Source: an uncultured delta proteobacterium
GTDB taxonomy: Bacteria > Myxococcota_A > Polyangia > Fen-1088
Reading direction: 5' to 3'
Assembly (NCBI GenBank): GCA_963767925.1
Contig: CAVYGB010000010.1
Location: 32,001-96,000, forward strand
Length of the DNA: 64,000 nucleotides
In this document: positions 28,556 through 38,632 of the stretch, piece after piece
How the letters are laid out: each line of letters starts with the position of its first letter
Position numbering within the stretch: the stretch's first letter is position 1
Translations under genes and position numbers: made by a program
Notes under the pieces: generated by a model
Database searches by the model: none
What the model saw: only the letters and a program-made list of their open reading frames with translations
Told to the model about the DNA's origin: nothing

Positions 28556-29257
28556 GTGCGAGGAAGCCTCTCCATCCCGCTCCTGCTGGCCGCGCTCCTG
28601 CCGCTCCCGGCGTCTGGCCAGGGCCCGGGGCTCCCGGCGCTCACGGTGGACTTCAAGCGGGCGCCGGTGGGCTCCTGGGCGGAGTACGCCATCCAGGTCG
28701 GCGAGGCGGGCGGCGCGACCCTGAAGGCGCGCTGGGCGCTGCTGGCCCGCGATGCCACCGGCAACACGCTCGAGCTGACCCTGTCCGGGCCGGGCGCAGG
28801 CGCCGCGCAGATCGGGGGCAAGGTTGTGACGCGCATGGTGCTGCTTCCCGATCCCATCGGTTCGGGCAAGCCGATCCGGCAGCTCGTGGTGCAGCTCGGT
28901 GATCGCGAGCCGGTCGAGGTGCCGCTCGATACCCCTGGCCTGCCCGGGCAGAAGTTCCAGAACGCCGATCCCAAGAAGCTCCTCGATCGCCCGTCGATCG
29001 CGGTGCCCGCCGGGTCGTTCGCCACCGGGCACTACCGGGATCTGCTCCCCGACAGCACGGTCGAGTCCTGGCTCAGCACCGACGTGCCCCCGCTGGGGGT
29101 GGTCAAGATCTACTCGGAGCCGCGCCCGGGCGCGCTGGGTCCGGGCGGCAAGCCGCTGCCGCCGGTGACCATGGAGCTCGTCGCCCACGGCAAGGACGCG
29201 CGGCCGGCCATCACCCGGCCCGCCCGCCCGCTGGCCGCGGGCCCCGAGCGGAGGTGA
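28556..29257 (+). CDS. Secreted hypothetical protein
   Basis: Signal peptide, beta-rich body (VGSWAEY, VPAGSF, WLSTDVPPLGVVK); GTGA overlap with the next gene. Confidence 0.75.
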   Translation: MRGSLSIPLLLAALLPLPASGQGPGLPALTVDFKRAPVGSWAEYAIQVGEAGGATLKARWALLARDATGNTLELTLSGPGAGAAQIGGKVVTRMVLLPDPIGSGKPIRQLVVQLGDREPVEVPLDTPGLPGQKFQNADPKKLLDRPSIAVPAGSFATGHYRDLLPDSTVESWLSTDVPPLGVVKIYSEPRPGALGPGGKPLPPVTMELVAHGKDARPAITRPARPLAAGPERR

Positions 29258-32200
29258 TCCCCGCAATGGCGCGACCCGGATCTCGACCGCTCCTCCCGCT
29301 GGCCCTGCTGGCGGCGCTCCTGAGCGCGGGCCCGCGGCTGGCGCGGGCCGCCGATCCGGCCGGAGCCCGGCTGGAGCGGCAATACCAGGAGGAGGTGCGC
29401 CCCTTCCTGCAGGGCTTTTGCCTGGGGTGCCACGGGCGGGACAAGCCGAAAGGCCAGCTCGATCTCAGCGCCTTTCCCGACGCAGCGTCGGTTGTGGGGG
29501 GCATCGCGAGCTGGCGCGCGGTGGCCGACGCCCTCACCGCCCGGGAGATGCCACCGGAGAAGGCCCGCCAGCAACCGGCCGAGGCGGCGCGCGCCCAGGT
29601 CGTCGCCTGGATCCATGCCCTCGAGCAGCACGAGGCGGAGCGAAACGCGGGCGACCCGGGCCGCGTGCTGGCCCGCCGGCTGAGCAACGCCGAATACGAC
29701 TACACCGTCCGCGATCTGACCGGCGTCGACCTCCGCCCCACCCGGGAGTTCCCGGTCGATCCCGCCAACGAGGCCGGCTTCGACAACTCGGGCGAGTCGC
29801 TCGTCATGTCGCCGGCCCTGCTGAAGAAGTACCTCGACGCCGCCCGCACGGTGGCCGAACACGCGGTGCTGGCCCCCCGGGGGCTGGTCTTCGCCCCCTA
29901 CCCTGCCGTCACCGACACCGATCGCGACCGCTACGCCGTCGCGCGCATCGTCGACTTTTACCAGCGGCAGCCCACCGACCTGGCCCGCTACTTCCTGGCC
30001 GCCTGGCGGTTCCAGCACCGGGCCGCGCTCGGTCAGCCGCAGGCCACCCTGGCGGCCGTCGCCGCCGAGGAGCGGGTGGACGCCGACTACCTCGGCACGG
30101 TCTGGCAGGCACTGGCCGGCGAGCGCGAGGAGATCGGCCCGCTGGCCCGCCTGCAGGCCATGTTCCGGGCCCTGCCCCCGCCCCCCGCGGCCGAGGCGGC
30201 GCGGGCCGGCTGCGGCGAGATGCGCGACTTCGTCTCCGAGCTGCGCCCGAAGCTGTCCCCCGACTTCCCGAATCTCGAGCTCAAGGGCGTGTCGGCGGGC
30301 AGCCAGCCGCTGGTGAAATGGAAGAACACCCAGCGCGCCCGCCACCGCTGGGCCTTCGATCCGGCCGCCCTGTACGTGCCAGCGCCGCGGCCCCCCGGCG
30401 AGGTGGGCCCCGGGACGGAGAAGGCGGTGGCCGGGCTGGCCATGGCGGTGGCCCACTTCTCCTTCCGGAACATCGTCCACGACTCGGCCCTGCCGATCCC
30501 CTACGGCGTGCACGAGCTGGCGGCCACCTTCGATCCGCCCGACCCGGCCCTGGCCATCCCCGACGAGGCCTCCCGGCCCCGCTACCAGGCGGCGTTTGCC
30601 CGCTTCTGCGCGGTCTTCCCCGATGCCTTTTACGTCCTGCAACGGGGGCGCGCGCACCTCGACCCGCCCAAGGACCGCAAGCAGAACGAGGAACAAGGCC
30701 GCCTGCTCAGCGCCGGGTACCACAACATGTTCGGCTTTTTCCGCGACGACCTGCCGCTCTACCAGCGCATCCTCGACGCCGAGGGCCGGCGCGAGCTCGA
30801 TCGGTTGTGGGGGGAGCTGGACTTCATCACCCAGGCGCCCCGGCGGCAACACGCGGACTACATCTTCTACGAGCGGGCGGAGTCGGGCAGCATCAAGGGG
30901 CCGGCCTTCGACTTTCTCCGCTCGGAGGACAAGAGCGCCACCTCGGAGGCGACAATCCGCCGCCTCGCCACCGCCTACCTGGCCAACGCCCGGACCAGCC
31001 TGCGCAGCGGCGGCGGCGACGGGCGGGTCATCCCCATCCTCGAGCGCTTCTTCCGGGACGTCTCGGCGAACCTCCGGCGGGTCGAGCGGGAGCAGCGGGC
31101 GGCCGAGCCCCGCCACCTGGCCGCGCTGCTGACCTTCGCCAGCCGGGCCTACCGGCGGCCGCTGACCCCGGCCGAGCGCGCTGGCCTGCTGGGGTTTTAT
31201 CGCTCGCTGCGCCGGGAGGGCCTGGATCACGAGGCCGCCGTCCGCGACTCGATCGCCCGCGTCCTCATGTCCCCCAACTTCCTCTACCTCAACACGAAGC
31301 CGGCGCTGGCCACCGCGCCGCCCGCCGCGGGGACCGGGGTGGGGCGGCTCGACGACCTCGCCCTGGCCAGCCGGCTGAGCTACTTCCTCTGGTCGAGCGC
31401 GCCCGACGGGCCGCTGCTGGCCGCCGCCCGGGCCAGCCGCCTGGGCCGTCCCGGGGGGCTGGCGGCCCAGGCCCGGCGCATGTTGAAGGACGATCGGGCG
31501 CGGGCCCTGGCGGTGGAGTTCGGCGGGCAGTGGCTCGACTTCCGGCGCTTCGAGGAGCACAACGCCGTCGACCGCGGGCATTTCCCCGGCTTCGACGGGG
31601 CCCTCCGCCAGGCCATGTTCGAGGAGCCGGTCCGCTTCTTCCTCGACCTCGTCCAGCAGGATCGTTCGGTGCTGGACTTTCTCGACGCCGACCACACCTT
31701 CGTCAACGCCCCGCTGGCCCGCCACTACGGCATGCCGGTCCCGGCGGGCGAGGCCTGGGTCCGGGTCGAGCAGGCCGGCCGGTACCAGCGGGGCGGCATC
31801 TTGCCGATGGCGGTCTTCCTGACCAAAAACGCGCCCGGGCTGCGCACCAGCCCGGTCAAGCGCGGCTACTGGGTGGTCCGGCGCGTCCTCGGTGAGCACA
31901 TCCCCCCGCCCCCCGCCCAGGTGCCGGAGCTGCCGGCCGACGAGCGCAAGATGGGCGAGCTGACCCTGCGCGAGATGCTGGCCCGCCACCGGGAGAACGC
32001 GGCCTGCGCCGGCTGCCACGCCCGCTTCGATTCGTTCGGGCTGGCCTTCGAGGGGTACGGCCCGGTCGGCGAGCGGCGCACGGTCGACCTCGGCGGGCGG
32101 CCGGTCGACACGCGGGCGTCGTTCCCGCCCGGCAAGGGCGCGGGCCCGGCGGCGGGCGTTGAGGGCCTGGGCCTGGCGGGCCTGCGCGATCACCTGCGCG

Positions 32201-32442
32201 CCAACCGCCAGGACGACTACCTCGACAACCTGTGCCGCAAGCTGCTCAGCTACGCCCTGGGACGTGGCCTCCTGCTCTCGGACGAGGCCACCATCCGGAA
32301 GATGCGGACCGGCCTGGCCGCCGGGGGCAACCGCTTCGGCGTGCTGGTGGAGACCATCGTGGGCAGCCCCCAGTTCCAGACCCGGCGGGTCGGAGACGTC
32401 AGCGCGGCCCTGGTGTCCCCGGGCGGCGGGGAGGTGCAGTAG
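29254..32442 (+). CDS. DUF1592/DUF1588/DUF1587/DUF1585-type cytochrome c domain protein
   Basis: Signal peptide; CLGCH, RRLSNAEYDYTVRDL, LASRLSYFLWSSAPD, TSPVKRGYWV, CAGCH. Confidence 0.9.
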   Translation: MIPAMARPGSRPLLPLALLAALLSAGPRLARAADPAGARLERQYQEEVRPFLQGFCLGCHGRDKPKGQLDLSAFPDAASVVGGIASWRAVADALTAREMPPEKARQQPAEAARAQVVAWIHALEQHEAERNAGDPGRVLARRLSNAEYDYTVRDLTGVDLRPTREFPVDPANEAGFDNSGESLVMSPALLKKYLDAARTVAEHAVLAPRGLVFAPYPAVTDTDRDRYAVARIVDFYQRQPTDLARYFLAAWRFQHRAALGQPQATLAAVAAEERVDADYLGTVWQALAGEREEIGPLARLQAMFRALPPPPAAEAARAGCGEMRDFVSELRPKLSPDFPNLELKGVSAGSQPLVKWKNTQRARHRWAFDPAALYVPAPRPPGEVGPGTEKAVAGLAMAVAHFSFRNIVHDSALPIPYGVHELAATFDPPDPALAIPDEASRPRYQAAFARFCAVFPDAFYVLQRGRAHLDPPKDRKQNEEQGRLLSAGYHNMFGFFRDDLPLYQRILDAEGRRELDRLWGELDFITQAPRRQHADYIFYERAESGSIKGPAFDFLRSEDKSATSEATIRRLATAYLANARTSLRSGGGDGRVIPILERFFRDVSANLRRVEREQRAAEPRHLAALLTFASRAYRRPLTPAERAGLLGFYRSLRREGLDHEAAVRDSIARVLMSPNFLYLNTKPALATAPPAAGTGVGRLDDLALASRLSYFLWSSAPDGPLLAAARASRLGRPGGLAAQARRMLKDDRARALAVEFGGQWLDFRRFEEHNAVDRGHFPGFDGALRQAMFEEPVRFFLDLVQQDRSVLDFLDADHTFVNAPLARHYGMPVPAGEAWVRVEQAGRYQRGGILPMAVFLTKNAPGLRTSPVKRGYWVVRRVLGEHIPPPPAQVPELPADERKMGELTLREMLARHRENAACAGCHARFDSFGLAFEGYGPVGERRTVDLGGRPVDTRASFPPGKGAGPAAGVEGLGLAGLRDHLRANRQDDYLDNLCRKLLSYALGRGLLLSDEATIRKMRTGLAAGGNRFGVLVETIVGSPQFQTRRVGDVSAALVSPGGGEVQ

Positions 32443-32443
32443 A

Positions 32444-33742
32444 ATGGCCGGCATGAACGGGCGGCGCTCGATTTCCCGCCGCGTCCTGCTCCGGGGCGCC
32501 GGGGTGGCGATGGCGGTCCCCTGGCTGGAGTCGCTGCCGGTGTGGGGCGCGACAACCCCGCCGAAGCGGTTCGCGGTGCTGTTCATGGGCAACGGCATCA
32601 ACGCCAACCACTGGTGGGCCAAGGGCGCCGGCCGGGACCTGCAGCTCGGCAAGAGCCTGCAGCCGCTCGAGCCGCTCAAGGCCAAGATGAACTTCATCAG
32701 CGGCCTGTACAACAAGCCCTCGGTCGGCGTCGGCATCCACCCGGGCATGACCGGCGGCATCCTGTCGGGCGCCCCCTTGCAGAAGGGCTCGGTGCTCAAG
32801 GCCGGCGTCAGCATGGACCAGGTGCTGGCCGAGCGCCTCGGGTCCGAGACGGTGCAGCCGAGCCTGGTCCTGGGCTGCGAGCAGCCCAACACCGGGTTTC
32901 ACGAGACCAACTACTCGATGGCCTACAGCTCGCACATCTCCTGGCAGAGCCCGAGCTCGCCGGTGCCGCTGGAGGTCTACCCCTCGCTGGCCTTCGACAG
33001 CCTGTTCGAGAACCGGGGCGGCAAGCGCCTGCGCAGCATCCTCGACGCGGTCAAGGACGACGCCTCTGGCCTGAGCCGGAAGATCGGGGCCAGCGATCGG
33101 ACCAAGCTCGACGAGTACCTCACCAGCGTGCGCGAGGTGGAAAAGCGGGTCGAGCCGCTGCGCCCGACCGCGGCCGCCCAGCGCCAGCCGGAGCCGGCGA
33201 CCGCCCTGGCCCGGCCCCCCAAGGGCCTGCCCGAGGATCTGCGCGAGCATATGAAGCTGATGTGCGACGTCGCCGCCCTGGCTTTCCAGACCGACCGCAC
33301 CCGGGTGATCTCGCTGATCTTGTGCCGGGATCTCTCGGGCCTGTTTTACCCCTTCCTGGGGGTGCGCGACGCCCACCACCCCGCCTCGCACCGCGACCTG
33401 TCCGACGACTACGAGGCGATCACCCGCTACTACTGCGGGCAGCTCGCCTACCTCGCCACCCGGCTCGACCGCATGCCCGAGGGAGAAGGCACCGTGCTCG
33501 ACAACGCCTGCCTGCTGTTCCTGTCGAACATGTGGGCCGGCTGGAGACACGACAACAGCCGCCTGCCGGTCCTGACCCTGGGGGGCCTCGGCGGGACCCT
33601 CCGCACCGGCCGCATCCTCGAGTATTACGACAAGCCCGACGAGGAGCGGAAGCTGTGCAGCCTCTACCTGTCCCTCCTGGACCGGATGGGGGTGAAGCTC
33701 GACCGGTTCGGCGACGCCGACCGGCGTCTGGCCGCCATCTGA
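32444..33742 (+). CDS. DUF1552 family protein with Tat-like signal
   Basis: SRRVLLRGAGVAMAVPWLESL, SMDQVLA, SILDAV, KLDEYLTSVREVE, AFQTDRTRV, HHPASH; usual partner of DUF1592 proteins. Confidence 0.9.
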   Translation: MAGMNGRRSISRRVLLRGAGVAMAVPWLESLPVWGATTPPKRFAVLFMGNGINANHWWAKGAGRDLQLGKSLQPLEPLKAKMNFISGLYNKPSVGVGIHPGMTGGILSGAPLQKGSVLKAGVSMDQVLAERLGSETVQPSLVLGCEQPNTGFHETNYSMAYSSHISWQSPSSPVPLEVYPSLAFDSLFENRGGKRLRSILDAVKDDASGLSRKIGASDRTKLDEYLTSVREVEKRVEPLRPTAAAQRQPEPATALARPPKGLPEDLREHMKLMCDVAALAFQTDRTRVISLILCRDLSGLFYPFLGVRDAHHPASHRDLSDDYEAITRYYCGQLAYLATRLDRMPEGEGTVLDNACLLFLSNMWAGWRHDNSRLPVLTLGGLGGTLRTGRILEYYDKPDEERKLCSLYLSLLDRMGVKLDRFGDADRRLAAI

Positions 33743-33752
33743 GCCGGCGCCG

Positions 33753-34811
33753 TCAGGGGAAGGCCAGCACGTCGGGCTCGCCGTAGAAGCCGGCCAGGGC
33801 CTCGATGTGGCGCTGGGCGAACTCGCGCCGGGCGACAACCGCCCGGATCTCGCTGGCGGTGAGCACGTCTTCGGGGTCGCTCTCCTCGGACATCAGGCGC
33901 TCGAGGTTGGGCACCGTGACCCGGGCCAGCGAGCGATACAGCCGGCGGGAGAAGCGCTGGGTGCGCCCCAGGAGCTGGCGGTTGCGCTGGTGCCCCTCGG
34001 GGTTGAGGAAGAAGGCCATGGTGTTGTCCATGAAGAAGAGCTGCGATCCGTCGGGCGACATCTTGATGTTTCCGCCCGAGTAGCGGTCCGGGTTGGCGGT
34101 GAGGAAGTCGAACAGGATGAGGTCCGAGAGCTGGGCGGCCAGGGGGCGCTTCTCGGGCGGGATGAAGCTCCCCTGGATCAGCCAGGCGCCGCCCTCGCGT
34201 AGCCCCTCGCCCGTGTCGAGCCCGGAGTCCTTGATCTCCGGGATCCAGTAGGAGAACACCCCCGCTGTCCGTCCGAGCGGATTGAAGATGGTCTCGGCCC
34301 GGATGCGGGGGACTGCCGGCGTGCTCTCCGGGTGCAGCCGGGCCAGCAGGTCCTCGCGGCTGACCGCGCGGGTGGTGGCGGGCGGGACGGCGGCGAGGCC
34401 GAGCAGGCGGTTGAGCCGGTAGGCGGCCACCTCCTTGCGGGGGACCGTCTGTAGATTTGTCTGGGCCGGCTTGAAGGCGGCCCGAGATCCGTCGGCGAAC
34501 TCGACCCGGAAGGAGAGCGAGGAGCCGCCCTTGTTGAGCTTGAGGCGCACGATGGGCTGGTTGCGCACGCGGGCCAGCAGCAGATCGTCCGCCATGCCGA
34601 GGAACATCCCGGCCGGCTCGGCGATCACGGCCGGGTCGGGCGGATAGGAGATGTCCCGCCGGACCGGGTAACGCAGGGCCAGCTCGGCCCGGGCGCGCGC
34701 CTCCATGTGCCGGGAGATGGTGGCGGCCGCCACCCCCATGCTGCCGCCGATGGCGAACAGGGCGGTCACCGCCAGCACCAGCTCGACGAGCACGTAGCGC
34801 AGCAGCGACAT
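33753..34811 (-). CDS. Membrane-anchored atypical kinase, Four-jointed/Fam20/PI3-4-kinase-like fold
   Basis: N-terminal hydrophobic anchor; GGSS loop, AAFKP, EVAAYRLNRLLG, SDLILFDFLTANPDR, FMDNTMAF. Confidence 0.7.
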   Translation of the reverse strand: MSLLRYVLVELVLAVTALFAIGGSMGVAAATISRHMEARARAELALRYPVRRDISYPPDPAVIAEPAGMFLGMADDLLLARVRNQPIVRLKLNKGGSSLSFRVEFADGSRAAFKPAQTNLQTVPRKEVAAYRLNRLLGLAAVPPATTRAVSREDLLARLHPESTPAVPRIRAETIFNPLGRTAGVFSYWIPEIKDSGLDTGEGLREGGAWLIQGSFIPPEKRPLAAQLSDLILFDFLTANPDRYSGGNIKMSPDGSQLFFMDNTMAFFLNPEGHQRNRQLLGRTQRFSRRLYRSLARVTVPNLERLMSEESDPEDVLTASEIRAVVARREFAQRHIEALAGFYGEPDVLAFP

Positions 34812-34854
34812 CGCCTACCGCTCCCGCCCGGAGGGGACGCCCGCCGCGGCTACG

Positions 34855-34883
34855 TTGATATACAGAGTAACATAAAATACAAT
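34855..34883 (+). promoter_or_regulatory. sigma70 promoter of the GNAT gene
   Basis: TTGATA-N17-TACAAT in a strongly AT-rich island. Confidence 0.7.
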
Positions 34884-34965
34884 CTTCATGAGAGGCAACG
34901 TGGAGGCCGGCGGGTCGGACGGGAACGCCGGCCGGGCGCGCCGCCGGGTCGTCGCGAGAACAAGG

Positions 34966-36189
34966 ATGGCGGCTTTGCGAGCATCGGTGATCCGGGACCT
35001 GGGGGGACTGGAGGCGATATCGGCAGAGTGGGAGGGTCTGCTGGAGCGGTCCGCGGCTCCGGAGATCTTTCGTACCCCCGACTGGATGTCGGTCTGGTGG
35101 CAGGTGTTCGGCGACGGCGGCCGGCAGCCCCTGGTGCTGGCTGTGCGGCAGGGTCGCACCCTGGTGGGCCTGGCCCCTTTCGTGCTGCGCGAGGTGGGAT
35201 GGGGCGGGCGCGCCCGCCTGCGGCGCCTCGAGCTGATGGGCACCGGCGAGGATCGGGCCGACGAGGTCTGCAGCTACTTCGGGGACATCCTGGCCGCTCC
35301 CGGGTTCGAGGAGACCGTGTGCGAGGGGGTGTGGCGGTTCCTGCAGGACAACCGGTCGGTGTGGGACGAGGCGGTGTTCCCCGGATTGCTGAAGAGCGCG
35401 CTGCTGGCCCGCCTGCTCCGCTCGGCGGCTCACGACAGCGGCCGGGCCACGGCGGTCAGCGGCGCCGGACGCCGCTATTTCATGGACCTCTCGCGGGGCG
35501 ACTTCGACGGCTTTCTCGCGGGGCTCTCCAAGAAGAAGATGAAGCGCTTCCAGTCGTACCGGCGGCGGCTGGAGAAGGAACAGACCTTCGAGGAGCGCAT
35601 CACCTCGCCCGAGGACGTGCCCCTGTTTCTGCGAGAGATGTCCCGGCTCAACCGCCTCCGGCACGGGAGCAAGGGGCGCTCCTCGGCCTTCGGCAGCGCG
35701 AAGTTCCGCCGCTTCCACGAGCTCCTGACGCCCCGGCTCTGGCAAAAGGGGCAGCTCGACCTGCGCATGTGGAGGCGGGAGGGACGCTGCGTGGCCGCCC
35801 TCTACCACTTCCTCTACGCGGGCACGGTCTACGGCTACCAGATCGGCTTCGACGCCGCCGCCTTCGGCAGCGTGTCGCCCGGCCTGGTCACCATCGGCCA
35901 GTCGATCGAGTGGGCCTTCGCCAGCGGCTGCCGGCGCTTCGACTTTCTCGTCTCCGGAGACGGCTCTTACAAGGAGGACTATCCCTGCCAGACCGAGGAG
36001 GTGCTCGACCTGACGATCTACAACGACACCGCCGCGGGCCGGCTCATGAACCTGGCCCGCCAGGCCCGGGGAGCCCTCCGCGACGTCCGCGCCCACCTCG
36101 AGGCGGCCCAGGCCCGGCAGGCGCCGGCCCTCCCCGCCCCCGCCCCCGCCCCCGAGGCTCCCGCGGAGCAAGCCCAGCCGGCCGCCTAG
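34966..36189 (+). CDS. GNAT family acetyltransferase (CelD/BcsL-like)
   Basis: EWEGLL...FRTPDWMSVWW, LVGLAPF, YQIGFD...SPGLV, FDFLVSG..YKE. Start 34966 preferred because ATG 34888 is too close to the -10. Confidence 0.85.
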   Translation: MAALRASVIRDLGGLEAISAEWEGLLERSAAPEIFRTPDWMSVWWQVFGDGGRQPLVLAVRQGRTLVGLAPFVLREVGWGGRARLRRLELMGTGEDRADEVCSYFGDILAAPGFEETVCEGVWRFLQDNRSVWDEAVFPGLLKSALLARLLRSAAHDSGRATAVSGAGRRYFMDLSRGDFDGFLAGLSKKKMKRFQSYRRRLEKEQTFEERITSPEDVPLFLREMSRLNRLRHGSKGRSSAFGSAKFRRFHELLTPRLWQKGQLDLRMWRREGRCVAALYHFLYAGTVYGYQIGFDAAAFGSVSPGLVTIGQSIEWAFASGCRRFDFLVSGDGSYKEDYPCQTEEVLDLTIYNDTAAGRLMNLARQARGALRDVRAHLEAAQARQAPALPAPAPAPEAPAEQAQPAA

Positions 36190-36243
36190 CGCACCAGTGC
36201 GCCCGGTCCCGGGACCCGGATCCGGTTCGATCGAGCGCCCGCT

Positions 36244-37419
36244 TCAGCGGGTGGTGATGGCGGTGAGGGCCTGGGAGATCTCGGACTCGCTGGTGACGCC
36301 CCAGAAGGTCTTCACGATGTTGCCCCCGCGATCGATGAGGACGATGTGCGGGAGGGCCACGACCTTGTACCGGCTGCCCACCTCGCCGTCCTGATCGATG
36401 ACCATCGGGTAGGGGGCGGGGTGCTCGCGCAGCACCGCCTCGACCTGTTCGGGCGTCACGGTGGATCCGTCGAAGTTGATGCCGAGGAACTCGACCCCTT
36501 CGCCCCGCCAGCGCTGATACAGCCGGTGCAGGGTCGGCATCATGTGCAAGCAGGGGGCGCACCAGGTGGCCCAGAAGTCGAGCAGGACCACCTGCCCGCG
36601 CAGCTCGGTCAAGCTGACCCCGCCTGGCTTGCCGTCGACGCGAGGGAGGGAGAACTCGGGCGCCTCGGTGCCACGGCCGAGCGGGCGGATGGCGTCGGCG
36701 TGCCGGAACACCCAGCCGGCGTTGACGAACAGGGCCGCCCCCAGCAGCCCGGCGAAGACGGTCACGGCGATGCGCGAGCGGGTCCGGGGCACCGTCGGCG
36801 GCGGGGAGCCGAAGGGGGCCGACGAGGTGGAGGCGTCGCCGGGGCCGATGCCGGCGGCGGTGATCTGACGCCCCCGGGCCTGGGCGATCCCCAGCCCCAG
36901 CACGACCGCCGCCCAGGCCAGGGCCGCCAGGCTGAAGAGCTGGTTGGCCGAGTAGGGCAGCGGGCCCAGGAAGGCCTCGTGATCGAGCGTGCGGTAGACC
37001 GCCCGCAGCGCAAAGAAGGGGACGTAGCTGACGGCGGCCAGCTCCAGATCTCGACCGGGATCGCGCCGGCCCCGGCCCGCGGCCAGGGTCAACAGGATGG
37101 CCGCCGGCAGGATCACGATGATCGCCTCGCGGACCTCGAAGCTGACAACCGCCAGGGTCTGGCGCAGCACGGTCCCGAAGGAGAGATGGGTGATGCCCAG
37201 CATCGCCCGCATCAGGTCCTCCAGGCGAAAGCAGAGGATGCCAGCGAGCACCAGCCAGCCGGCGTCGCGCACGCCGGTGGCCCGGGCCTCGACCAGGGCG
37301 AGAGCCCGGCGGGGCTCGGCCAGGATCATGCCGAGGCGGGCCGGCAAGGTGGCGTTCCATCTGGCCGGGGGCGCGTCGGGCGGCGCGGAGTCGGTGTCGG
37401 CCAGGGTCGCTTCCGGCAT
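36244..37419 (-). CDS. Multi-TM membrane domain fused to a TlpA/ResA thioredoxin
   Basis: About 5-6 hydrophobic segments, then APEFSL...LRGQVVLLDFWATWCAPC...YKVVALP. Confidence 0.88.
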   Translation of the reverse strand: MPEATLADTDSAPPDAPPARWNATLPARLGMILAEPRRALALVEARATGVRDAGWLVLAGILCFRLEDLMRAMLGITHLSFGTVLRQTLAVVSFEVREAIIVILPAAILLTLAAGRGRRDPGRDLELAAVSYVPFFALRAVYRTLDHEAFLGPLPYSANQLFSLAALAWAAVVLGLGIAQARGRQITAAGIGPGDASTSSAPFGSPPPTVPRTRSRIAVTVFAGLLGAALFVNAGWVFRHADAIRPLGRGTEAPEFSLPRVDGKPGGVSLTELRGQVVLLDFWATWCAPCLHMMPTLHRLYQRWRGEGVEFLGINFDGSTVTPEQVEAVLREHPAPYPMVIDQDGEVGSRYKVVALPHIVLIDRGGNIVKTFWGVTSESEISQALTAITTR

Positions 37420-37426
37420 CGGGCGA

Positions 37427-38632
37427 TCAGTCCTTCTTGCTGCGGTTCTGGACGAGCCGCCGGGCACCCGCGCTGAGCGCCCCCGGCACGTTCTTGGACT
37501 TGGAGACCAGCTTGAGGTCGTCGGCCTGCAAGAAAGGCAGGAACCTCAGCGAGAGGGCCAGCGGGCACTTGGGGTTCTGCACCAGGTTGAGCTTGACCTG
37601 GTAGGTCTGGGTCAGGTCCCGCTGGGCAGCAATGTAGCGGATCACGTCTTCACAGACGCTGCGGTTGCCGGCGGCGTTCACGATCTCCGAGTCGGTGATC
37701 CGGGGGGATCGAATCGCGGCGAGCGCTACCATGCGGTTGGGATCCCGGAGGAGGTTCTTGCGACAGTACGCGTTGCCCAGGGTGGCCAGCCGGATCTTCT
37801 CGTAGAGCTTGAGGCGGGTAAAATCGATGATGGGGCTCTTGCGTTTCTTGTCGTCGCCGTCGCCCCCCTCTGTCTTGGCCTTCGCCGCGCCCGGGGGGCT
37901 GTCCTTCTCCTCCTTTTCCAGGAGGTCGTCCAGCTCCAAGGGGGGCGCGGACTCGGCGGTTGCCAGCAGCGCGGCAAACCCGGTGTCGACGGCGGGATCG
38001 GTGGCGGCGACGTCCTGCGCGATCGACTTGGCGACCTCGTCGAAGCAGGGGATGCCCTCGATCCGCACCCCGTTGCGGGCGCAGAGCTCGATGGCGCGGT
38101 TGAGCGAGGACATGCGGGACTGGGTGTTGAAGTAAAGAGCTTCCAGGATGGCCGGACAGCGCAGGATGCGCGCTTCATTGGCAAACATGACCTCCAGCTC
38201 GCGCTCGCGCAATCGGCTGGCCAGCAAGATGAAGGTCTGGTCGGCGGTCCCCTGGTTGTAGAGAACCGGCTCGAGGACCTCGGTCCGGTCGGGGCCCAGG
38301 CGCTCGGCGAAGTAGTGCAGCACCTGCGCGGGCAGCCGTTCGGCCAGGGCGGGGGCCAGGATCTTGTCGGGGATGCTGGTGGGGGCGCTCGCGCTGGCGG
38401 TGCGCACCGCCCCCTCGGCGTCGAACGAGAGCTGGTAGACGGCGGTCAGCAGCTCGGCCGGCCGCAAGGGAGCGATGCCCCGGGCGGCCAGGGTCTTCAT
38501 GGCGGGGGGCGCCGCCAGCAGCTTCTGCACGGCCGGGGGGAGGGTCTCGGCCGGCAGGGGGGCCAGCACGAACGCCGACAGGGCGCTGGCCGCCGGTCCG
38601 GTTGGTGAAAGCTCAGCGCCGGTTTCGTTCAT
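37427..38632 (-). CDS. Conserved hypothetical alpha-helical repeat protein
   Basis: Protein-like 401-aa ORF with short helical repeats (LLRDPNRMVALAAIRSPRIT, LVQNPKCP); overlaps the coaX stop. Confidence 0.8.
   Translation of the reverse strand: MNETGAELSPTGPAASALSAFVLAPLPAETLPPAVQKLLAAPPAMKTLAARGIAPLRPAELLTAVYQLSFDAEGAVRTASASAPTSIPDKILAPALAERLPAQVLHYFAERLGPDRTEVLEPVLYNQGTADQTFILLASRLRERELEVMFANEARILRCPAILEALYFNTQSRMSSLNRAIELCARNGVRIEGIPCFDEVAKSIAQDVAATDPAVDTGFAALLATAESAPPLELDDLLEKEEKDSPPGAAKAKTEGGDGDDKKRKSPIIDFTRLKLYEKIRLATLGNAYCRKNLLRDPNRMVALAAIRSPRITDSEIVNAAGNRSVCEDVIRYIAAQRDLTQTYQVKLNLVQNPKCPLALSLRFLPFLQADDLKLVSKSKNVPGALSAGARRLVQNRSKKD

Follow-up and report, generated by a model that had tools for sequence, protein, structure and literature searches.

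Within a 64,000-nucleotide stretch of DNA from an uncultured delta proteobacterium of the Myxococcota (contig CAVYGB010000010.1; the whole stretch is called the window below), a gene on the minus strand at 33753-34811 encodes a protein, labeled P0001, for which profile searches and a structural model support a place among the Fam20-type secretory-pathway kinases, as a divergent bacterial homologue. Kinship with this type had been proposed from the letters of the DNA before any database was searched (hereafter, the sequence-only reading), and it was borne out by profile matches to FAM20C, FAM20A, and Fam20B, by Fam20 structures at the top of the fold search, and by relatives that score above the cut-off of Pfam family PF06702. 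On balance, we favor a protein that would be anchored in the inner membrane, face the periplasm, and be catalytically competent, acting on a membrane-proximal protein or glycan of the envelope. The gene and the parts of its product are as follows.

33753..34811, minus strand: gene for the Fam20-like kinase-fold protein (open reading frame, homologues, FAM20C profile match, AlphaFold model, and Foldseek)
34719..34796, minus strand: N-terminal hydrophobic helix, taken as a signal anchor (approximately residues 6 to 31 of P0001)
34602..34670, minus strand: Pro-rich linker from anchor to domain (residues 48 to 70, from the translation)
33756..34601, minus strand: kinase-like domain (residues 71 to 352; FAM20C/A/B profile matches and Foldseek alignments)
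34431..34529, minus strand: N-lobe nucleotide-binding elements (GGSS at residues 95 to 98, K114 in AAFKP, and E127, which begins the alpha-C helix; placed by alignment to the N-lobe of FAM20C)
34023..34127, minus strand: catalytic segment SDLILFDFLTANPDRYSGGN...FFMDN (D235, N240, D242, R243, N248, and D262)

The open reading frame (ORF) starts with ATG and encodes 352 amino acids, its stop codon being included in the coordinates. Every motif quoted in the sequence-only reading, as well as the N-terminal hydrophobic stretch, was found in the translation: besides GGSS and AAFKP, EVAAYRLNRLLG contains E127, SDLILFDFLTANPDR spans residues 229 to 243, and MDN spans residues 261 to 263. A homology search in which 8,000 candidates were scored returned 886 homologues of P0001 at an E value of 1e-3 or less, and the 120 listed are 58 to 85% identical to it. 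Alignment A1 was made from 27 of these 120 close homologues. Alignment A2, which comprises 117 sequences, combines 15 close homologues with 102 of 150 listed cluster representatives, the other 48 having been left out as short or fragmentary. Since there are 886 homologues and since the motif residues are 89 to 100% conserved in A2, the ORF is not a chance one and the gene is real. No further copy of the kinase gene was found in the window. A search for fused or longer forms (617 to 2,000 amino acids) returned none at E ≤ 1e-3, which is weak evidence only.

Homology to Fam20 was marginal with P0001 alone and became stronger with an alignment. When the single sequence was compared with the PDB by phmmer, Fam20B, Fam20C, and Fam20A were the only matches (E values of 0.005 to 0.37). 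The A1 profile matched FAM20C at 1.6e-7, FAM20A at 5e-6, a Fam20B-type protein at 7e-5, and Caenorhabditis elegans Fam20 at 0.039. The FAM20C match covers both lobes of the kinase domain (N-lobe, 78-155; C-lobe, 223-343), and the FAM20C, FAM20A, and FAM20B matches together cover query positions 78 to 155 and 223 to 353, a homology that is significant at the profile level in both lobes. PF06702 was matched at E ≤ 0.01 by 50 of the 117 members of A2. When 30 relatives were examined singly, 14 matched it at the same threshold, and 6 of them, at 27.1 to 35.8 bits, exceeded its gathering score of 26.8 bits. The matched part of PF06702 in these relatives runs from the catalytic loop to the C terminus. 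A precomputed PF06702 label is carried by 81 of the 120 listed relatives of the secreted-type protein P0259, compared to 1 of the 120 listed relatives of P0001.

The structural comparison led to the same family. An AlphaFold model built with A2 reached a predicted local distance difference test score (pLDDT) of 94.7 and a predicted template modeling score (pTM) of 0.82, superseding an earlier run with the shallow 27-sequence alignment (pLDDT of 69). In the model, residues 2 to 47 form one helix, and the linker of residues 48 to 70 is the stretch of lowest confidence, with block means of 68 to 78. When the model was searched against the PDB with Foldseek, ranks 1 to 28 were all Fam20 chains (E values of 1.9e-12 to 6e-8; TMq of 0.48 to 0.61), aligned over 333 to 369 columns at 15 to 17% identity. 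These were followed by PI4KII-alpha (E of 2.9e-7; TM of 0.47) and then by actin-fragmin kinase and Vps34.

Other kinase families resemble P0001 less closely. Type II PI4K, which is membrane associated and has a catalytic loop of the DRxxxN type, is the second-best fold match (E values of 2.9e-7 to 1e-4; TM of 0.39 to 0.49). However, it falls far short of Fam20: the A1 profile reached PI4KII-alpha with an E value of only 1.9, and PF00454 (PI3_PI4_kinase) was matched by 1 of the 117 relatives at E ≤ 0.01. At the same threshold, HipA_2 (PF20613) was matched weakly, over the catalytic loop, by 33 of the 117, and among the 30 relatives taken singly, one (P0211) passed its cut-off. HipA is the cytoplasmic toxin kinase of a toxin-antitoxin pair. 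No antitoxin partner of this kind lies beside the P0001 gene, and no HipA chain was present among the Foldseek matches listed. A best fold match to HipA or PI4K, named in the sequence-only reading as the outcome that would overturn it, was therefore not what was observed; PI4KII-alpha ranked behind all Fam20 chains. The sequence-only reading also likened the catalytic loop to that of Four-jointed/FJX1; no FJX1 chain came up in the PDB searches by sequence, profile, or fold. FAM198, a family related to Four-jointed/FJX1, was matched weakly by 5 of the 117 relatives. CotH, the spore-coat kinase of Bacillus, is described in excerpts of PMC12189002 as the only characterized bacterial kinase said to resemble Fam20C and as lacking a DFG-type metal-binding Asp. 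P0001 differs from it in that D262 is conserved in its family; neither P0001 nor the 117 relatives gave a CotH match in Pfam, and no CotH chain was among the Foldseek matches listed.

The active site is conserved to an extent that makes an active phosphotransferase likely. The FDFLxxNxDR...DN segment of Fam20 aligns with P0001 without gaps, the FAM20C counterpart of the P0001 segment being FDFLMGNMDRHH...LDNG. If FAM20C residues are numbered as the chain index of 5yh3_C plus 140, D235, D242, and R243 map onto D451, D458, and R459, and K114, E127, and D262 map onto K285, E311, and D478, the last of which we take to be the metal-binding Asp. Positions of the Lys, the alpha-C Glu, the catalytic Asp, and the metal Asp (K114, E127, D242, and D262) are thereby shared with Fam20. 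Among the 117 sequences of A2, D235 and R243 are present in all 117, D262 in 116, N240, E127, and D242 in 115 each, N248 in 113, G95 in 109, and K114 in 104, with Arg in a further 11. It is because the Lys, the alpha-C Glu, the catalytic Asp, and the metal-binding Asn and Asp are 89 to 100% conserved among these relatives that we regard phosphotransfer as likely. The mapping to D451, D458, and R459 agrees with the table of a review (PMC7948968, cited from excerpts), in which D451N disrupts a salt bridge in the catalytic segment of FAM20C and R459 adjoins the cation-interacting Asp.

Other traits of Fam20 are missing from P0001, which is also approximately 100 residues shorter than the crystallized Fam20 domains. 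According to excerpts of PMC5865150, from which the following statements on Fam20 are drawn, E311 of FAM20C occupies the canonical alpha-C position, and a further acidic side chain in the beta3-alphaC loop, E306 in FAM20C and E213 in C. elegans Fam20, is essential and forms a pair with the Lys. No conserved acidic residue was found between K114 and E127 in A2, and for this reason it is probably the canonical Lys-Glu pair that serves the bacterial proteins. Fam20 proteins have four conserved disulfides; P0001 contains no Cys in its translation and therefore forms none of them. In Fam20B, Gal-Xyl is bound by a His after DR and a Lys after DN. These contacts are replaced in the bacterial family, position 244 being Tyr, Phe, or Trp and position 265 being Met in P0001. 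Given that the Gal-Xyl-binding residues are not kept, we lean slightly toward a protein Ser/Thr substrate over a glycan.

The N-terminal helix has the consensus MRLxRYVLxELA, and E10 is invariant in all 27 sequences of A1. Its sequence is conserved far beyond the needs of a plain anchor, with the Glu sitting inside the hydrophobic core, and an RLxxY/C..E motif recurs even in relatives that are less than 45% identical. This conservation and the buried Glu may reflect oligomerization or a specific partner in the membrane. In the relatives, the linker region differs in length and is rich in Pro and Ala, several of the anchor type having long linkers of this composition.

To the export class of each relative we applied a home-made hydrophobicity/lipobox heuristic, by which 28 of the 117 N termini were lipobox-like, 48 had a long hydrophobic segment (the class of P0001 itself), and 23 had a short one, giving an export-type segment in 99 of 117. 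By eye, at least 2 of the 28 lipobox-like relatives (P0147 and P0168) resemble anchor types. The hydrophobic peak begins within the first 25 residues in 91 of the 101 sequences that have one. As controls, internal 60-residue pieces of the same proteins were positive in 44 of 471 cases, none of them lipobox-like, and shuffled N termini were positive in 395 of 1,170 cases, with 20 lipobox-like. The occurrence of signal-peptide-like and lipoprotein-like N termini across the relatives is our reason for considering it plausible that the catalytic domain faces the periplasm in a type II arrangement (N-in, C-out). P0001 may thus share with Fam20 an extracytoplasmic domain placed behind an N-terminal anchor or signal.

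The mechanism that we propose is based on the conserved residues and on the alignment to Fam20. The kinase would be tethered to the inner membrane by its one conserved N-terminal helix and the short Pro-rich linker. A nucleotide triphosphate and a divalent metal would bind between the lobes, held by the GGSS loop, the K114-E127 pair, N248, and D262, and D242 of the DR motif would serve as the general base. The phosphate would then be moved to a hydroxyl of a membrane-proximal component of the envelope. In genomic terms, we take the gene to belong to the core of a Polyangia lineage, in single copy; it lies after a gene for a membrane TlpA-like thioredoxin.

Several observations weigh against a periplasmic Fam20-type kinase. 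P0001 itself lies below Pfam detection, having no match at E ≤ 1 and hence failing the PF06702 gathering score, and its one NCBIfam match, to the SCO1664 family, is weak (E of 0.0018; the cut-off is 172 bits). The export classes come from the heuristic described above and not from SignalP or LipoP, and 18 of the 117 relatives lack an export-type segment by it. Lys plus Arg (K+R) is higher on the C flank of the helix in 91 of 118 clade members, which on its own would favor a cytoplasmic domain. The main objection concerns the phosphate donor: no ATP pool is known in the periplasm of bacteria, where modifications usually draw on lipid-linked donors. In the HMMER alignments, the E306 residue of FAM20C falls in a segment of 12 to 13 residues that is absent from P0001. 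Finally, coaX and a radical-SAM/PilZ gene, which accompany the kinase in related loci, encode cytoplasmic proteins, and the synteny may therefore be mere lineage gene order.

A number of these points would be accommodated if the same kinase fold were placed in the cytoplasm (N-out, C-in), where it would use ATP on an inner-leaflet or cytoplasmic target in the manner of PI4KII or HipA. As far as is known, ATP is available only in that compartment. The flank composition, the position of PI4KII-alpha as the next-best fold, the weak HipA_2 and SCO1664 matches, the lack of cysteines, and the cytoplasmic neighbors all fit with such a protein. However, net flank charge in the 118 clade sequences is nearly equal on the two sides (N flank, approximately +1.2; C flank, approximately +1.3) and is thus ambiguous for orientation. 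The start MSLLRY (MRLLRY in the clade), followed by the hydrophobic core, resembles the n- and h-regions of a signal peptide. Lipobox-like N termini are found among the relatives but in none of the internal controls, and other relatives have short, signal-peptide-like ones; a homologous domain rarely switches compartment. Fam20 is also ahead of PI4KII by five orders of magnitude in E value and has the higher TM. We consider a cytoplasmic domain unlikely on this evidence. It is still more improbable, in our estimation, that the fold is used without phosphotransfer, either as a pseudokinase or binding module, like Fam20A, or for other nucleotide chemistry such as AMPylation. A use of this kind might be how the family copes with a periplasm that lacks ATP. 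The missing E306 equivalent speaks for it, as Fam20A owes its pseudokinase state in part to a Gln in place of this acidic residue (PMC5865150, in excerpt). So do the profile match to the pseudokinase FAM20A, nearly as good as that to FAM20C, and the conserved transmembrane helix with its buried Glu, which suggests a protein partner. On the other hand, the conservation of the canonical catalytic positions is the pattern of active kinases, and E127 stands at the canonical ion-pair position, which Fam20 fills differently (PMC5865150, in excerpt). A periplasm-facing, active kinase is the reading that we retain.

The neighborhood of the kinase gene in the window contains the following features.

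34855..34883, plus strand: sigma-70-like site TTGATA-17-TACAAT (10 of 12 matches, inside an AT-rich patch directly before the GNAT start)
34888..36189, plus strand: GNAT acetyltransferase (Acetyltransf_6; PF13480, E of 4.8e-25)
36244..37467, minus strand: membrane TlpA-like thiol:disulfide oxidoreductase (Yip1-like membrane part and a thioredoxin domain with WCxPC)
37427..38632, minus strand: 401-amino-acid protein, its gene flanked by coaX and the TlpA-like gene (unmatched in Pfam, NCBIfam, and PADLOC)
29254..33742, plus strand: DUF1592/DUF1588/DUF1587/DUF1595/DUF1585 protein (1,062 amino acids, cytochrome c motif), followed by DUF1552 (HXXSHH), convergent on the kinase gene

To compare gene order, loci were collected by a pattern scan with one genome per species. 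Of the 86 relatives identified in this way, we retained 80 loci, and every one of these is from a metagenome-assembled genome (MAG); linkage was counted in the 74 loci with at least 1,500 bp upstream. The most constant neighbor of the kinase gene is the TlpA-like one, which lies upstream in the same orientation in 68 of the 74. Its distance from the kinase gene is 300 bp or less in 32 loci, 300 to 1,000 bp in 20, and more than 1,000 bp in 16. The usual order, seen in 48 of the 80 loci, is coaX, the 401-amino-acid protein, the TlpA-like protein, the kinase, and the radical-SAM/PilZ gene. Because related loci have the radical-SAM/PilZ gene downstream of the kinase where the window has the DUF1592-type and DUF1552 genes, the window has been rearranged on that side. 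Conserved as it is, the linkage to the TlpA-like gene may simply reflect the gene order of the lineage.

The divergent acetyltransferase across an AT-rich, promoter-like spacer, noted in the sequence-only reading, is present as described: a PF13480 GNAT gene is separated from the kinase gene by 76 bp that include an AT-rich patch of approximately 36 bp. The scanned region contained 1 sigma-70-like site, compared to 0.2 expected from shuffled sequences, and the dip in guanine-plus-cytosine content over 300 bp was modest (0.66 versus approximately 0.70 to 0.72). Judged by its sequence and placement, the site belongs to the GNAT gene and not to the kinase gene. The further suggestion that the two genes form a co-regulated envelope-modification pair did not survive comparison across genomes and is, in our view, highly improbable. 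The divergent arrangement recurs in one related locus (L001), that of the closest relative (80% identity), and this was the only 1 of the 74 loci to contain the GNAT gene; it was absent from the other 73, and the promoter-like site faces the GNAT gene only.

The position occupied by the GNAT gene, 34812 to 36243, is a variable spot. The gap between the TlpA-like and kinase genes is empty, at 642 bp or less, in 52 of 68 loci, and in the other 16 it holds 1.1 to 3.8 kb of differing DNA (counterparts of the spot were seen in L002, L004, L024, L029, L040-L044, L055, L067, L071, L073, L074, and L076). Sixteen ORFs scanned from 12 of the 16 large-gap loci are unrelated genes. They encode periplasmic di-haem cytochrome c peroxidases, cytochromes c, an apiosidase-like protein, short-chain dehydrogenases, a DEAD-box helicase, and LysR-type regulators, and 5 have no family. 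The peroxidases and cytochromes c among these inserts, like the constant TlpA-like neighbor, count in favor of the periplasmic reading of the kinase. A two-gene system of kinase and GNAT was rejected on these grounds, conserved linkage being absent and the gap holding unrelated genes in other genomes. What separates the TlpA-like gene from the kinase gene in the window is a local, lineage-specific insertion, the GNAT gene, which is not a conserved partner.

The GNAT protein also matched BspF, a crotonyl transferase and type IV secretion effector, weakly in NCBIfam (E of 8.8e-5; 21 bits, with a cut-off of 775), and there was a weak FemAB_like match; both probably reflect shared GNAT-fold similarity only. 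In the TlpA-like protein, AhpC-TSA, Redoxin, and Thioredoxin were matched with E values of 1e-23 to 1e-11, and Yip1 was matched weakly. An alignment of the TlpA-like neighbor proteins (A3) showed that the Yip1-like part is multi-pass with a near-invariant AGRGRRDP loop (R135 invariant; R134 and D136 at 90% or more) and that the WCxPC active site is conserved. The 401-amino-acid protein is kept in many related loci. None of the PADLOC defense models matched the kinase, the GNAT, the TlpA-like protein, or the 401-amino-acid neighbor.

The family to which P0001 belongs is large and apparently one of the Myxococcota. An exhaustive profile search covering 1.84 billion cluster representatives returned 1,314 clusters at E ≤ 1e-3, 677 at E ≤ 1e-10, and 276 at E ≤ 1e-30. 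By hand count, the source labels of 55 of the 80 loci name Myxococcota, Myxococcales, Polyangia, or Haliangium, and those of the remaining 25 name only (delta)proteobacteria or Pseudomonadota. Among the matches listed, all are named "hypothetical protein" and derive from MAGs of Polyangia, Myxococcales, Myxococcota, or Polyangiales. In the Atlas, the clusters closest to P0001 contain only bacteria (100%), Myxococcota being the most common source, and carry PF06702 on 10 to 36% of their members; one related cluster is labeled PI3/PI4-kinase. A search of the literature found no published description of bacterial Fam20-like proteins. An excerpt of a 2026 preprint has a one-line mention of Myxococcota as possible sisters of FAM20B. 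The sequence-only reading had called the system undescribed. This holds insofar as the proteins are uncharacterized, but Pfam already tags many of the relatives with a Fam20C domain and the preprint places Myxococcota beside FAM20B. The P0001 family is an uncharacterized bacterial form of an already known kinase type.

Animals have well-established kinases that work beyond the cytoplasm (Fam20C, Fam20B, FJX1, and POMK), whereas in bacteria such phosphorylation is, to our knowledge, essentially unknown. If the proposed role is correct, the missing periplasmic ATP pool is what would make the kinase interesting. A broader proposal, which we put forward tentatively and regard as possible but doubtful, is that the exported Fam20-type kinases of Myxococcota (anchored, lipoprotein, and secreted forms; at least 1,314 clusters at 50% identity) carry out genuine nucleotide-dependent phosphorylation of periplasmic or surface proteins or glycans and are the prokaryotic stock of the eukaryotic secretory-pathway kinases, FAM20B first. 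Bacteria would then have their own equivalent of the extracellular phosphorylation of animals, and an unrecognized source of phosphate donor outside the cytoplasm would be implied. The simpler, canonical Lys-Glu pair of the family and its lack of disulfides would fit with such a stock. The P0001 family bears on the origin of the animal secretory-pathway kinases, the bacterial side of which has so far been undescribed. As a large, conserved, catalytically intact, and apparently exported family, it would allow envelope phosphorylation in bacteria, and the donor that it would require, to be tested directly.

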